A stretch of 32,000 bases of DNA from Cuniculiplasma divulgatum (lineage in GTDB: Archaea > Thermoplasmatota > Thermoplasmata > Thermoplasmatales > Thermoplasmataceae). Positions 1,435 through 20,720 of this stretch are shown here, piece after piece. The stretch covers positions 1,710,001 through 1,742,000 of the forward strand of contig NZ_LT671858.1 in assembly GCF_900083515.1 (NCBI RefSeq), read 5' to 3'. Under the pieces are notes generated by a model. The model was not told where the DNA came from. It ran no database searches and saw only the letters and a program-made list of their open reading frames with translations. The first letter of the stretch is position 1, and every line of letters begins with the position of its first letter. The position numbers and the translations under genes are program-made.

Positions 1435-1506
1435 GGGCCGGTAGATCAGGGGTAGATCGCTTGCTTCGCAAGCAAGAGGCCTCGGGTTCAAATCCCGACC
1501 GGTCCA
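1435..1506 (+). tRNA. tRNA-Ala, anticodon CGC
   Basis: The cloverleaf folds by hand. Acceptor GGGCCGG/CCGGTCC with a G3:U70 pair (the alanine identity element), D arm GATC-AGGGGTA-GATC, anticodon arm CTTGC-TTCGCAA-GCAAG (anticodon CGC at 1467-1469), variable loop AGGCC, T arm TCGGG-TTCAAAT-CCCGA, discriminator A. No CCA is encoded. Confidence 0.95.
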
Positions 1507-1507
1507 T
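1488..1507 (+). repeat. attL: direct repeat formed by the 3' end of tRNA-Ala
   Basis: tcaaatcccgaccggtccat here matches tcaaatcccgaccagtccat at 20701-20720 (19/20). Confidence 0.85.
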
Positions 1508-1527
1508 TTAATCTATTAATCGAATAC

Positions 1528-1534
1528 TTTTTAT
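1528..1534 (+). promoter_or_regulatory. TATA box candidate for the integrase gene (leaderless-type spacing)
   Basis: TTTTTAT is centred about 25 nt upstream of the ATG at 1556. Confidence 0.4.
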
Positions 1535-1555
1535 CCCGGCACCCGTTATGTTCTC

Positions 1556-2848
1556 ATGACCATGCAGCCGAAGTACCAGGAACTGCTTCTTGATGATGAT
1601 GTGAGAAGGTGGTACGAGAACCTCAGGGCAAAGTCGGTTCTTACTGCGACAGTTGCATTGAGGAATCTGGGCCACTATTGTGAGCTTACCCACACAAATC
1701 CAAAGGGCATATTGAATAAAGCAAGCGCCAGCGAGAAGGATTTCAGGTACGAATTCACGGATTTTGTCAGGAGGATGGAAAAGGAAGGCAAGGCAGGATC
1801 ATACATAGCGAGATTCAAGAAGGTCATTATCTCTTGGCTGAAGTTTAACGGTATTGGTTTGCAGTTAACCGTTAACATATCCGGGGAAAACGAAACACCG
1901 ACAATCGTTAACGAGAGAGTTCCAAGCAAGGAAGAACTGGGTAGAATACTCAGGAAAGCCACATCAAGAGGGAGAGTTGCCATAGCCATTATAGCGTTTT
2001 CAGGCCTCAGACCGGAATCCCTGGGAGATTACGAAGGCACAGACGGATTGAAACTTGGCGACATCAAAGAATTACGTATATCTGATGAAATACAGTTCGA
2101 AAAGACTCCTGCAATGATTGTGGTGAAGAACAAGCTGAGCAAGGCAAGGCATCAGTACTTCAGCTTCATCGGAGAAGAAGGCGCAACCTACATAAAGGAA
2201 TATCTTGAGGAGAGAAGGAAGCTGGGCGAGGAGCTGACCTACGAGTCTCCATTGTTGCAGTTCGATGTCAGAGGAGTTAAGAAGAACGCATTCCTGAGAA
2301 CCACTCTTGTTACCAGGGATATAAGGGAAGCAATAGAAAACTCAGGCCTGAAGATGCGTCCATATGTCCTGAGAGCGTATTTCTCAACGGCATTGGATAT
2401 TGCAGAGGCAAAGGGCCTGATATCCCATCCATGGAGACAGTTCATCATGGGCCACAAGGGAGACATAGAAGCCCGATACTCTACGAACAAACGGCTACTA
2501 CCTCCTGATGTAATTGAGGAGATGAGGGAGGCATACAGGAAGAGCACGAAATTCCTTGAGACCAGATACAGCGAGCTTGAGGAGGACAAGGCCCGGTTGT
2601 ATCTGCAGCAGCAACTCCTATCAGCAGTTGGCTACAAACCGGAGGAGATTGACAAAATGGATCTCACCGACATAAGCAGCGACGACTTCCAGAAGCTACT
2701 CAGGGACAAGGTCGCGGGAGCCATGGCCAGCAACGGCTCGAAACAGAGGCTTGTTCCAATGAATGAGATAGAGAAGCTCCTGAGCGAAGGATACGAGTTC
2801 CAGGCAGTTCTGCCCAACGGAAAGGCTATAATGAAAATGCCGTTTTAG
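1556..2848 (+). CDS. int: Tyrosine recombinase / integrase of the integrated element
   Basis: 430-aa ORF directly downstream of the tRNA target. The catalytic-type motifs appear in order: FSGLRPESL (Arg I), LRAYFSTAL, FIMGHKGDIEARY (His...Tyr nucleophile region). Confidence 0.85.
   Translation: MTMQPKYQELLLDDDVRRWYENLRAKSVLTATVALRNLGHYCELTHTNPKGILNKASASEKDFRYEFTDFVRRMEKEGKAGSYIARFKKVIISWLKFNGIGLQLTVNISGENETPTIVNERVPSKEELGRILRKATSRGRVAIAIIAFSGLRPESLGDYEGTDGLKLGDIKELRISDEIQFEKTPAMIVVKNKLSKARHQYFSFIGEEGATYIKEYLEERRKLGEELTYESPLLQFDVRGVKKNAFLRTTLVTRDIREAIENSGLKMRPYVLRAYFSTALDIAEAKGLISHPWRQFIMGHKGDIEARYSTNKRLLPPDVIEEMREAYRKSTKFLETRYSELEEDKARLYLQQQLLSAVGYKPEEIDKMDLTDISSDDFQKLLRDKVAGAMASNGSKQRLVPMNEIEKLLSEGYEFQAVLPNGKAIMKMPF
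2811..2848 (+). repeat. Copy 1 of a 38-bp direct repeat (the authentic 3' end of int)
   Basis: tgcccaacggaaaggctataatgaaaatgccgttttag. A 31-bp stretch is identical to 4804-4834 and the repeat is 36/38 overall. Confidence 0.9.
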
Positions 2849-18370: not shown

Positions 18371-18402
18371 TAACGCCAAACAAATATTAAGCTGCGAGTA
18401 AC

Positions 18403-19875
18403 ATGTGTTTTGTAGAGAATGTGACAAAACTGGCATACTCACGATTGCTTTTCGGCGACTTCCTACTGGACGATGTTGATGAGAAGGACGTCGTCGAGCA
18501 AATCAAGACGCTTGGCGTTACTGAACAGCTTCCGAAGGATAATGGCCCGTCCATGTTTCAAATACAGAATATCACCGAATTCATTGCTCAACTCGAAAAG
18601 ACACAAAACTCGCATGATGGACTGTTTCAATACATTAAAGATGCACGTTTCTGGATCTATAGGGACGGTATACTCCCTATCAAAGTCGTCGTCATAGAAG
18701 TCGTCTTGAAAACTGATGACCTTCAGAAGCTCAAGAAATCTGATCTGGAGGGCAAAATATGGAAAGTTTCCCTTCTTCTTGGAAGTTGCTTCAGCGAAGG
18801 TTCAATTCCTATTGCAGATTCTTCTAAGGATTTTCGCATTCTTAAGTTCTCGTCTAGGGCCATACCTAACGTTGTCCTCCGGAATTTTGTTGCTGAATTT
18901 GTCATAGAAACTGAGCGCGAATTCTTTGATGATTTCAATAAAGAACTCGATTCGCTTGAGAAGGAAATATCCATAAGAGACCTAATAGAACAAAAAGTAA
19001 TTGAAGCTCGAGAGAACTGCAAAATACCTGCAGATGAGGTTGACAAGGTTATTTCAAAAGGTACGCTTCAGCAAGAGCAAAAGATCAAGGATATTAGAAC
19101 TAAAATCATTTCATTGGAGCCTGTAAGTTTCCTTGAGGGCGGATTTTCTTACGAACAGAGCATAGTCAGAGGGTATGCCAACAAGATGTTCATCATTGGA
19201 AAAATTGTTCAAGGATCCCTAGGGGATTCCCCTCCTTTGTACCTTTGCGTCCTGAGTATGGGGGGATCACAGATACCATTGGCTAATCTGGAGAGTATGC
19301 CTGTATTGCAGTTCCCAGAGAGACCCTCTCTCCTGGACTTCTCGTTTGGGGCCGGACAGATACTTGCACTACAATTGTTGAATTCGTGGAACAGACACGT
19401 AGAAAAATTGGTTACGGAGATTACCACAAAGCAGAGCCCCTCCCAGACGAATGCCAACACGGATGCTAATAAAACCCTAGAAGAATTGCGAGACCTAATA
19501 TTCCATACAGGCATAAATGAAAAAATCTCGGTGAATTATCGGAGAGAATTACAGGATTTAGCCAACCCTTCCAGGAAGACATTTCTCTATGAGTTTCCTA
19601 TCCCCCCAGAAGAAGCCACACTGTATTCAACAAATCCAGAACAATATGGATTGGAGAAACCTGGTCCCATAGCATCCAATCTCGCATCCCTCGTTCTAAA
19701 AGATCTCAATTCAAACGAAAAGCATCTCTTGGGTGCTACTGACTTAAGGAAATCGAAGATAGATGTCTTGAAAATTGAAGAGGACCGTAAGTATTCAAGA
19801 AGGATGCTGTGTCTCACGGTTGTTATTGCTGTCGCGACTATTGTAAATGTTGTTCTTTTTTTGATTAGGTTGTGA
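18403..19875 (+). CDS. Uncharacterised 490-aa protein with a coiled-coil-like middle and a single C-terminal TM anchor
   Basis: Long ORF whose stop overlaps the next start (GTGAAAATG). The C-terminus is RRMLCLTVVIAVATIVNVVLFLIRL. I recognised no catalytic motif. Confidence 0.65.
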   Translation: MCFVENVTKLAYSRLLFGDFLLDDVDEKDVVEQIKTLGVTEQLPKDNGPSMFQIQNITEFIAQLEKTQNSHDGLFQYIKDARFWIYRDGILPIKVVVIEVVLKTDDLQKLKKSDLEGKIWKVSLLLGSCFSEGSIPIADSSKDFRILKFSSRAIPNVVLRNFVAEFVIETEREFFDDFNKELDSLEKEISIRDLIEQKVIEARENCKIPADEVDKVISKGTLQQEQKIKDIRTKIISLEPVSFLEGGFSYEQSIVRGYANKMFIIGKIVQGSLGDSPPLYLCVLSMGGSQIPLANLESMPVLQFPERPSLLDFSFGAGQILALQLLNSWNRHVEKLVTEITTKQSPSQTNANTDANKTLEELRDLIFHTGINEKISVNYRRELQDLANPSRKTFLYEFPIPPEEATLYSTNPEQYGLEKPGPIASNLASLVLKDLNSNEKHLLGATDLRKSKIDVLKIEEDRKYSRRMLCLTVVIAVATIVNVVLFLIRL

Positions 19876-20198
19876 AAATGAGCGATTCGAGGAAACGTGA
19901 GAGATTTACCATTGCCCTTCTGTTGGTCGTCATTTCATTTATAATGCTACTATATTCGAATGTCGTTCCACAACTACAGGCAACAAGAAATTACATGTTA
20001 CAAACATTTCCATTCCTAATCGCTGTACTCACTGGAATTCTTATATCCCTGAGTTCACAAATTATTTGGAGCCTTCTGATTAGGCCCTCTCTAAGTATAG
20101 ATATTGTACCAAAAGCCGCAGGAAGTGAACCTTCCATTCATGAAACAAAAGAGTGGAAGAAGAGCGTATTACCATTTAAGAGTCAAGAATTCTGGTAG
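19872..20198 (+). CDS. Small membrane protein (about 3 TM)
   Basis: 108-aa ORF with hydrophobic segments FTIALLLVVISFIMLLY, FPFLIAVLTGILISL and IIWSLLI. It may be the N-terminal part of a frameshifted gene that continues in 20104-20676. Confidence 0.5.
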   Translation: MKMSDSRKRERFTIALLLVVISFIMLLYSNVVPQLQATRNYMLQTFPFLIAVLTGILISLSSQIIWSLLIRPSLSIDIVPKAAGSEPSIHETKEWKKSVLPFKSQEFW

Positions 20199-20676
20199 AT
20201 CCCCAGCGTTTAACTGCAGAATACGCATAAACTTCCATGATCTTGGAGGCACTGAAAAATTTGGAATTAGTGGAAAATGGGATCGCGGTTCACAGCCCTT
20301 TGTTTACCAGCGGGTGCCCGTGAAATGGTGCAAAGATGGCACGATTAAAAGCGAAAATACTGAAACACCTAATGATTTCCTGATCCCCATTTCAGAATCC
20401 ATTGATCTATATCCATCTGATGATCCAGAAAGCTTTGGTCTCATAGTAAAATACAATGATGATCCAGACTGCTACGGCTTTAGCGCTTGGGGCTATTTGC
20501 GTTTTGGACTAGGGCACAGAATTCCTGAATGGAGACTGCCTCAAGGCGAACATTTTGCCAAAGTCACTCTTACGTATTCTAGTGGCTCTACAGGACGCAA
20601 GTTCTCAAAGGAATTCAAGGTCGATAATCTGGGCAGAGAATTAGATAGTGTCGAGATAAGCGATGTTAAGAAATAG
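20140..20676 (+). CDS. Uncharacterised beta-rich soluble protein or domain
   Basis: The track ORF 20104-20676 starts at TTG. The first ATG (MKQKSGRRAYYHLRVKNSGRSPAFNCRIRINF...) is at 20140. It overlaps the upstream ORF in the +1 frame. Confidence 0.5.
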   Translation: MKQKSGRRAYYHLRVKNSGRSPAFNCRIRINFHDLGGTEKFGISGKWDRGSQPFVYQRVPVKWCKDGTIKSENTETPNDFLIPISESIDLYPSDDPESFGLIVKYNDDPDCYGFSAWGYLRFGLGHRIPEWRLPQGEHFAKVTLTYSSGSTGRKFSKEFKVDNLGRELDSVEISDVKK

Positions 20677-20700
20677 AATAGTATTCGCTTAAAACATTAA

Positions 20701-20720
20701 TCAAATCCCGACCAGTCCAT
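20701..20720 (+). repeat. attR: copy of the tRNA-Ala 3' end
   Basis: tcaaatcccgaccagtccat matches 1488-1507 at 19/20. It is directly abutted by the IS256-family terminus at 20721. Confidence 0.85.

Follow-up and report, generated by a model that had tools for sequence, protein, structure and literature searches.

The closest described relative of the element analysed here is pPO1 of Picrophilus oshimae (NC_016049.1), a free plasmid of 7.6 kb that is present at 12–15 copies per genome, for which Orc1 has been proposed as the replication initiator and to which Angelov et al. (2011) related pTA1 of Thermoplasma acidophilum (PMC3177234). A second group of relevant systems are the 'pNOB8-type' archaeal integrative elements, which target the 3' part of transfer RNA (tRNA) genes, are bounded by direct repeats and carry an unsplit integrase gene (int) beside the left attachment site, attL (PMC5861418, PMC8371274); tandem integration at one locus is likewise on record in archaea, in a review that makes no mention of elements from the Thermoplasmatales (PMC8371274). 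The element studied here, which we call element A, shares these features with the pNOB8-type and occupies positions 1488–20720 of a 32,000-nt stretch of the Cuniculiplasma divulgatum S5 chromosome (NZ_LT671858.1, genome positions 1,710,001–1,742,000), referred to as the window; coordinates are window positions unless the genome is named. We conclude that element A is very probably an integrated, Orc1-dependent plasmid of the pPO1 type of the Thermoplasmatales that has acquired a tyrosine integrase module.

Element A and pPO1 come from hosts of the same order, Thermoplasmatales, and have several features in common: (i) an Orc1/Cdc6 protein, 41% identical over its full length, for which pPO1 provides the best match in PLSDB (E 4e-86), the next being Orc1 proteins of haloarchaeal plasmids with ~25% identity; (ii) a VirB4/HerA-like ATPase, 32% identical, for which pPO1 is the sole PLSDB record matched; (iii) a serine recombinase, 59% identical; (iv) a repeat-bearing intergenic region ahead of orc1; and (v) a methyltransferase or restriction-modification (R-M) cassette that starts from the end of orc1. 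They also differ, since pPO1 is a free circle with a G+C content of 30.5% (42% in element A) and has no integrase, attachment (att) site or ParA module, whereas element A is 19.2 kb long, integrated and provided with four cargo slots. Of the two proteins for which a preliminary description of this DNA had proposed a comparison with known archaeal elements, Orc1 finds its best match in pPO1, and for the integrase searches of PLSDB, INPHARED and IMG/VR returned no homologue. Archaeal plasmids that integrate at a tRNA gene through an unsplit tyrosine integrase are already known as a kind, as is tandem integration, and the replicon groups with pPO1 and pTA1; a literature search for relatives of these two plasmids returned the pPO1 paper only. 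As for the locus itself, the S5 genome paper (Golyshina et al. 2016; PMC5155288) lists the tRNA-Ala(CGC), the integrase (CSP5_1775), ParA, the resolvase, Orc1/Cdc6, the type III R-M system and the insertion sequence (IS) genes in its gene table, and defines two islands, GI_9 (1713043..1736229) and GI_10 (1747587..1763197), both labelled 'defense', without giving att sites, element borders or a plasmid reading.

The borders of element A are defined by its att sites. The target is the sole tRNA gene that ARAGORN recognises in the window, tRNA-Ala(CGC) (1435–1506, + strand; Rfam RF00005, 68.6 bits), whose 3' part is now provided by the attL core, a 20-mer (1488–1507, + strand) that runs from the T-loop to one base beyond the tRNA end and that also ends tRNA-Ala(UGC). 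The recurrence of this 20-mer at 20701–20720, already noted in the preliminary description, was confirmed, the single mismatch being a G-to-A change at position 14 of the core; no match arose in 100 shuffles, and the identity of bases 1508 and 20721 makes the repeat, as read from the letters, 21 nt long with one mismatch. Each core is accompanied by an arm. On the left, the P' arm (1508–1528, + strand) consists of an 8-nt spacer, ttaatcta, and a 13-nt inverted repeat, ttaatcgaatact, and is followed by a TTTTTAT box, 27–33 nt upstream of the int ATG, that may act as the int promoter; in the S5 genome this arm is found only after the two tRNA-Ala genes. On the right, attR (20680–20720, + strand) comprises 41 nt of conserved sequence, with the P arm (the 13-nt inverted repeat agtattcgcttaa plus the 8-nt spacer aacattaa) followed by the 20-nt core and its single mismatch. 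The arm left of the attR core, agtattcgcttaa, and that right of the attL core, ttaatcgaatact, are reverse complements of one another at 12 of 13 positions, and when arms and core are joined they form a symmetric 62-bp attP (13-bp arm, 8 bp, 20-bp core, 8 bp, 13-bp arm) in which TTAA abuts the core on both sides.

This architecture is not a peculiarity of element A. Conservation of the attP arms extends to five elements, from four genomes (S5, G029, Acidiplasma), with the arms flanking the core in element A, in its sister element A2, in two elements of the genome that we designate G029 (record CP009479.1) and in Acidiplasma aeolicum. Moreover, two short acid-mine metagenome contigs contain an uninterrupted arm-core-arm site followed by an integrase gene, which shows that the reconstructed attP exists as such. 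An arm similar to that of attP adjoins the core at tRNA-Val in S5, which suggests that the arms may be recognised by a conserved part of the integrase while the core follows the target. A degenerate P'-like arm was also seen directly 3' of tRNA-Leu(UAG) (genome 335984), with no integrase adjoining.

The integrase gene (1556–2848, + strand; 430 aa) starts 49 nt past the end of the tRNA, in accordance with the distance of about 50 bp given before. The open reading frame (ORF) is full-length, and attP lies outside it, so the gene stays intact on integration. Its product is a tyrosine recombinase, and a divergent one. In an alignment of 18 homologues, with identities down to 43%, R152, K196, Y270, R273, H300 and Y308 are invariant, with Y270 occupying the place of the first His of the HxxR motif, and a conserved domain of ~100 aa lies C-terminal to the catalytic Tyr. 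Pfam gives no match for this integrase, a PDB search with the single sequence returned nothing meaningful, and the NCBIfam match to XerA (E 7e-9) scores far under the cut-off of that model. The AlphaFold2 model (mean confidence score, pLDDT, 78) is predicted to form the two-domain C-clamp of tyrosine recombinases, and Foldseek matched it with a probability of 1.00 to archaeal XerA, IntI, XerH, Cre and lambda Int. The nearest solved structures are those of XerA from Pyrococcus abyssi and Thermoplasma acidophilum (PDB 4a8e, 5hxy; profile E 3e-4, fold E 7e-7), which have the same two-domain architecture; however, XerA is a chromosomal dimer resolvase of ~280 aa that acts at dif, whereas the integrase of element A has 430 aa, is borne by an element, targets tRNA genes and is only ~17% identical. 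It also stands apart from the pNOB8-type integrases, with no BLAST-level similarity to PLSDB or INPHARED entries, no Pfam match, a Tyr in place of the first His and the extra domain of ~100 aa.

A scan of one genome per species retrieved 64 homologous integrase loci, nearly all of them titled Thermoplasmata or Thermoplasmatales. The geometry seen in element A is family-wide: in about 40 of the 64 loci the gene begins 46–56 nt after a co-oriented tRNA gene. Integrases with at least 81% identity to that of element A lie at tRNA-Ala (CGC or UGC), while the remoter ones are found at Val, Leu, Cys, Ile or Met genes. The family has spread horizontally, with integrases 86–94% identical in records titled E-plasma and Acidiplasma, and one 81% identical in Thermogymnomonas, as against just 65–86% identity between host flanks within the genus. 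S5 itself encodes five further integrase paralogues, four of which adjoin tRNA genes (Ala-UGC, Val, Pro and Cys). The remaining one, the sixth S5 integrase (genome 593202–594503; 36% identity), has no adjoining tRNA according to ARAGORN.

All genes of element A lie on the + strand, and its G+C content is 42.0%, compared with 37.3% for the genome. The Orc1/Cdc6 protein, ParA, serine resolvase, HerA-like ATPase and type III Mod/Res pair named in the preliminary description are borne out by matches to Pfam, NCBIfam and PADLOC. Elements A and A2 and the two G029 elements (G029a and G029b) have one backbone order in common: int, ATPase operon, ParA with its partner, resolvase, origin-like region with orc1, a 0.4-kb non-coding element and attR. 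The orc1/cdc6 gene (11215–12300; NCBIfam TIGR02928, E 4e-30) is preceded by 260 bp that are conserved in 17 elements and contain a candidate replication origin (10964–11190), in which inverted GAGAGAGAGTCGCCGAACGCGTC and GACACTCTCTCTC boxes surround an AT-rich stretch and another box, of the GACTCGTTCGG type, follows. One subfamily of elements shows a joint change in the inverted boxes, from (GA)n/(TC)n to (GT)n/(AC)n. Tandem Repeats Finder detected no iterons. The region would fit an origin with inverted initiator sites, a proposal that the joint changes found better than position alone would. The orc1 frame itself is interrupted by a premature TAG (12256–12258) in place of a Ser codon of the relatives, 14 codons ahead of the ancestral TGA (12298–12300); the conserved tail can still be read in frame from the 13 codons after the TAG.

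The partition module consists of ParA (8491–9246; Pfam AAA_31, E 9e-62) and an overlapping gene for a 91-aa partner (9243–9518), which are kept as a pair in 20 loci; the position of the partner suggests a role in partition. Several TTAACC/GTTAAC-type repeats lie just upstream of parA, at ~8425–8475, and may represent the partition site. The serine recombinase, or resolvase (10348–10953; Pfam Resolvase, E 7e-44), is the homologue of the pPO1 recombinase. A 209-aa regulator with a winged helix-turn-helix (wHTH) domain (MarR-like; 4846–5475; weak Pfam matches to MarR/SarA) lies ahead of the backbone operon (5669–8235), which encodes a 124-aa protein (5669–6043), a polytopic membrane protein (6047–6454) and the VirB4/HerA-like ATPase (6457–8235), the last two closing a four-gene run. 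The ATPase has 592 aa, with a wHTH and a possible nuclease domain at its C-terminus. The GC-rich non-coding element (17840–18300, + strand; fold z-score -4.25) is the best-conserved DNA of the backbone, with 93% nucleotide identity among elements A, A2, G029a and G029b, compared with ~80% for the neighbouring genes; it belongs to no Rfam family, and a 141-aa ORF within it is probably spurious, its translation having a non-coding appearance.

Between these backbone modules lie four slots with variable cargo, whose borders are marked also by breaks in metagenome contigs. Slot 1 (2849–4841) encodes a 213-aa Cys-rich, halocin-C8-like protein (3043–3684) and three small membrane proteins (3728–4255, 4265–4519 and 4557–4781). 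The final 38 bp of int recur on its far side (2811–2848 and 4804–4841; 36 of 38 positions identical), so that the slot lies between two copies; the duplicate points to a stub of another element's integrase and hence to an exchange of modules between two elements. The slot is missing from metagenome variants in which position 2847 is joined to 4588, or 2846 to 5594. The 213-aa protein reaches 19.6 bits on the halocin C8 model TIGR04449, under the cut-off of 24, while covering the whole 69-position domain; a 206-aa paralogue (29180–29800), in the neighbouring unit B described below, reaches 52.9 bits on the same model. The two proteins are 26% identical, have the halocin-C8-like domain at the C-terminus and are each followed by small membrane proteins. 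To judge from these sequence features, they are candidate archaeocin and immunity cassettes, borne by plasmids of an acidophile. Slot 2 (9553–9993) holds a single gene, for a membrane protein of 146 aa to which no related locus has a homologue, and metagenome variants skip it (9511 joined to 10266).

Slot 3 (12302–17819; GC 33–38%) carries the type III R-M system, with Mod at 12302–14842 and Res at 14844–17819 (PADLOC MTase_III, E 1e-213, and REase_III, E 4e-27; Pfam N6_N4_Mtase and ResIII); the mod ATG lies one base past the ancestral orc1 stop. This slot, between orc1 and the non-coding element, is empty in A2, holds a different methyltransferase cassette in G029b and 9 kb of other genes in G029a, and in strain PM4, according to the published gene table, contains a type IIS R-M system (PMC5155288). 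It is a hot spot for R-M systems, and one of two mine-drainage metagenome studies lacks the whole R-M region (12.5–17.8 kb). Slot 4 (18403–20676) encodes three orphans, namely a 490-aa protein with a membrane anchor at its C-terminus, a membrane protein of 108 aa and a further protein of 190 aa, none of which has a family match in Pfam, PHROGs or PADLOC; the protein atlas has no family for the 490-aa orphan either. Metagenome variants skip this slot as well, with 18201 or 18266 joined to 20681. As the metagenome contig breaks coincide with the slot borders, they mark the same slots. Separately, contigs from 2024 RNA-seq libraries of the same strain cover 1200–21100, with the element identical to the window; their depth runs from ~10 (orc1) to 5600, highest in the R-M genes and slot 1 (~1700–2600 in the Cys-rich cassette), a pattern that hints at strongly expressed cargo without amounting to evidence of expression.

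Element A does not stand alone. Across the S5 genome there are 15 near-copies of the core, every one of them on the + strand. Three are tRNA 3' ends, namely those of tRNA-Ala(UGC) (genome 56,252–56,323), tRNA-Ala(CGC) in the window and, with 3 mismatches, tRNA-Glu(CUC) (genome 1327601). The other 12, attR of element A and 11 further sites, are each preceded by the 21-nt P arm and are all co-oriented, downstream of the two tRNA-Ala genes: eight behind tRNA-Ala(CGC), at window-equivalent positions 20701, 32305, 34285, 35209, 38407, 48958, 49679 and 53486, and at least four behind tRNA-Ala(UGC). The stack behind tRNA-Ala(CGC) spans 52 kb and consists of eight att-bounded units, of which element A is the one next to the tRNA and the sole complete one. 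In both stacks it is solely the first unit that retains an integrase end; the older units, of which there are 10 or more, are all without the P' arm, and every other unit of the stack that begins with element A is clearly decayed or without integrase. When a gradient of att decay was sought along the stack, the number of mismatches did not change monotonically; the age order rests only on the orthology of unit H, the most distal one, with a neighbouring species.

Stacks of this sort have parallels in bacteria. Accretion of integrative and conjugative elements (ICEs) and cis-mobilizable elements (CIMEs) is known from streptococci. A further parallel is that of the ssrA-specific islands of Dehalococcoides, for which McMurdie et al. 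2011 (PMC3146451) describe many islands at one small-RNA gene, some with the integration module beside the target and some without it, and with strain-variable cargo. These islands are bacterial, however, use another integrase family and target the transfer-messenger RNA gene, and in S5, unlike in Dehalococcoides, the unit that bears the integrase is at the same time a complete replicon of plasmid type.

At the right border, element A is followed by unit B, a decayed unit that extends from 20721 to window-equivalent 32324. It opens with an IS256-like IS (20721–24019, + strand; Pfam Transposase_mut 20847–21464 and 23542–23775), whose transposase is frameshifted and which is interrupted by an IS1634/IS4-like IS nested within it (~21684–23545; Pfam DDE_Tnp_1 21835–23481). 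The IS256-like inverted repeats pair ~20716–20758 with ~23975–24024, so that the earlier placement of this terminus at the very next base after attR is right to within 5 nt, the repeat starting somewhere in 20716–20725. The IS256-like IS has no target-site duplication, and neither of the two nested IS has another copy in the genome. The idea that the att repeat had once been longer can be dropped: among the att copies that are well preserved, the match to the tRNA stops at the same base, which means that the IS took nothing from the repeat of element A, and the repeat is complete. What is lost at the junction is the left end of unit B, and an adjacent deletion mediated by the IS would explain both this loss and the missing target duplication. 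Unit B further contains an IS66 transposase, other transposase pieces and a FAD-binding gene fragment; the latter (24949–25482, − strand) stands alone among the transposase genes, encodes 177 aa that cover just the beginning of a FAD_binding_4 domain, and is probably a gene remnant.

Comparison with other genomes reveals att-bounded variation between them. The sister element A2, at tRNA-Ala(UGC) of S5, has ~80% DNA identity to element A, and the complete genome G029 contains elements of 17.5 and 21.4 kb with the same order and the same att sites. As regards an empty tRNA-Ala site in related genomes, one of the checks proposed at the outset, in the nearest species compared (G010), whose flank is 85% identical, the plasmid backbone is absent at tRNA-Ala(CGC), but the site is taken up by that species' own array of eight arm-plus-core sites, and in the sibling strain PM4 the site is occupied. 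S5 unit H and the chromosome past it have their orthologous counterpart in the distal part of the G010 array, and unit H must therefore be older than the split between these species, the proximal 48 kb of the S5 stack being newer or replaced. In Acidiplasma aeolicum, the right end of an integrase-bearing element is 96–98% identical to the right end of unit B, and the unit after that element is 90–92% identical to unit E; the B-like and E-like units abut there at a decayed att site, while units C and D intervene in S5. This arrangement shows att-bounded presence/absence variation and a recent transfer between taxonomic families. The Acidiplasma aeolicum stack (1831–13185) is itself not a single 9.6-kb element but a tandem of three parts. 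One is an element of 7.8 kb that carries an integrase but lacks orc1, parA and resolvase; another is a unit of 1.8 kb, and the third is an integrase in fragments that stems from yet another element.

From these observations a life cycle can be proposed. The integrase, encoded 49 bp from the core, would recombine the 62-bp attP with the 3' end of either tRNA-Ala(CGC) or tRNA-Ala(UGC); the core brought in by the element would rebuild the tRNA, and the int gene would remain whole. As an episome, the element would replicate from the inverted-repeat and AT-rich origin upstream of orc1, would be segregated by ParA and its small partner, and would have its multimers resolved by the serine recombinase; the operon of the membrane protein and the VirB4/HerA-like ATPase may serve DNA transfer or uptake. 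Repeated integrase-mediated events at tRNA-Ala(CGC) would have built the stack.

It is conceivable, although we consider it improbable, that element A is by now an immobilised relic, derived from a plasmid but fixed as an island that is kept for its defence and competition cargo and that neither excises nor replicates on its own. Points (i) to (iv) of the following lend themselves to this view, and all six weigh against the reading of element A as an integrated plasmid: (i) the premature TAG in orc1 removes 14 residues that are conserved as far as pPO1; (ii) the attL and attR cores differ at one base; (iii) the sibling strain PM4, with an average nucleotide identity (ANI) of 98.7% to S5, has an element with the same backbone at the same tRNA, according to the published table (PMC5155288), so that no presence/absence of the whole element is shown at the strain level; (iv) neither a circular attP junction nor a clean empty site for element A was found in the assembled contigs of four public runs, which do contain the integrated attR junction, although contigs drop rare variants; (v) the attP-type junctions of the metagenomes could stem from tandem integrated copies, such a tandem being present in Acidiplasma, and as the 46 nt upstream of one of them match nothing among the sequences compared, circle and tandem are not separable there; and (vi) no excisionase, relaxase or pilus genes were recognised. 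To these may be added, for the relic, the state of every other unit of the stack. On the other hand, the integrase is full-length with all its catalytic residues, both att arms are intact, the other backbone genes are full-length when compared with their homologues, the lost tail of Orc1 is located after the winged-helix domain, and the different R-M systems in the same slot of S5 and PM4 imply recent turnover.

Two candidate signals were set aside in the junction search: a contig joint of 1508 to 20694 was discounted as evidence of a circle, its 28-nt side lying within repeated att sequence, and the loose contig ends at 20680–20721 belong to other att sites of the same genome. With the complete integrase, arms and remaining backbone on one side, and the orc1 TAG, the core difference and the PM4 backbone on the other, we regard it as about an even chance that element A can still excise. 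The caution about excision in the preliminary description was justified; its grounds, however, are the nonsense codon in orc1 and the lack of circular-junction evidence, and not the IS.

Another possibility, which refines rather than replaces the integrated plasmid but which we hold to be doubtful, is that of an integrative conjugative or mobilisable element, in which the four genes of the membrane/ATPase operon would make up a minimal machinery for DNA transfer, suited to cells that have no wall. The AlphaFold2 model of the ATPase has its best match in the conjugative VirB4 (4ag5, E 4e-11), followed by HerA, DndH, the type IV secretion system ATPase VirB4 of R388 and the coupling protein TrwB; NCBIfam adds weak matches to ICE VirB4, CedD and TraC. 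The operon is also the most widely retained backbone module (24–27 loci), the ATPase occurs on pPO1 too, and parts of these elements have passed between families. The predicted fold places the ATPase in the group of DNA translocases but does not fix its role, the HerA-type ATPases of repair and defence matching nearly as well, and a PDB search with the single sequence gave no match. Moreover, no relaxase, coupling protein or pilus gene was recognised with Pfam or NCBIfam, although archaeal versions may be unrecognisable, and PLSDB types pPO1 as non-mobilisable.

We also considered, with still more reserve, whether the tRNA-Ala stacks constitute an integron-like capture platform, on which small integrase-less units, each with the 41-nt arm-plus-core site at its end, would be inserted and excised, and would travel between distant Thermoplasmatales, by the action of the integrase of whatever plasmid happens to reside there. 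The absence of the P' arm from the older units, the location of C and D between B and E, and the 90–98% identity of shared units across families all bear on this idea, in which element A would not only be a passenger but would also drive a cassette system.

A provirus, for instance a membrane-enveloped one resembling pleolipoviruses, in which DNA would be packaged by the ATPase and the membrane proteins would belong to the virion, is very unlikely. The ATPase does have weak PHROG matches to terminase-type families and a weak profile match to the packaging ATPase B204 of STIV, and the element encodes several small membrane proteins in addition to the 490-aa protein with its C-terminal anchor. 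However, these proteins lie in variable slots that are missing from most relatives, no capsid, spike or portal family is matched by any element protein in Pfam or PHROGs, the PHROG matches being weak, at the level of the ATPase and none of them structural, and the integrase family is not found in INPHARED or IMG/VR. The homologues of the backbone on the free plasmid pPO1, the origin-like region, and the ParA partition module and resolvase, which are plasmid traits, support instead the earlier judgement of a plasmid, without recognisable capsid or packaging genes, over a provirus. Finally, a chance or generic repeat in an ordinary variable segment of the chromosome, for which the 15 near-copies of the 20-mer could be invoked, is refuted by the shuffles, in keeping with no match being expected by chance, by the positions of the copies, which make the 20-mer not unique but tie it to tRNA genes (all except the tRNA-Glu 3' end are tRNA-Ala 3' ends or the arm-plus-core junctions downstream of them), and by the elements of other genomes, which share the same bounds.

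Relative to the literature searched, the integrated pPO1-type plasmid described here is new in that it connects pPO1 and pTA1, the only free plasmids known from the order, with an integrated family that is widespread; the clade of the integrase with its symmetric attP, the R-M slot beside orc1 and the exact borders of the islands are new in the same sense. We know of no genetic system for Cuniculiplasma. None is available for Picrophilus either (PMC3177234), and the element could supply vector parts, including an attP/attB pair with its integrase, as well as a replicon of the Orc1 type whose candidate origin has been mapped, from which an integrative or shuttle vector might be built. For the biology of these acid-mine archaea, the slots reveal the sites at which R-M defence and halocin-C8-like competition genes are swapped, and what were loosely bounded 'defence islands GI 9–10' become units with exact borders.

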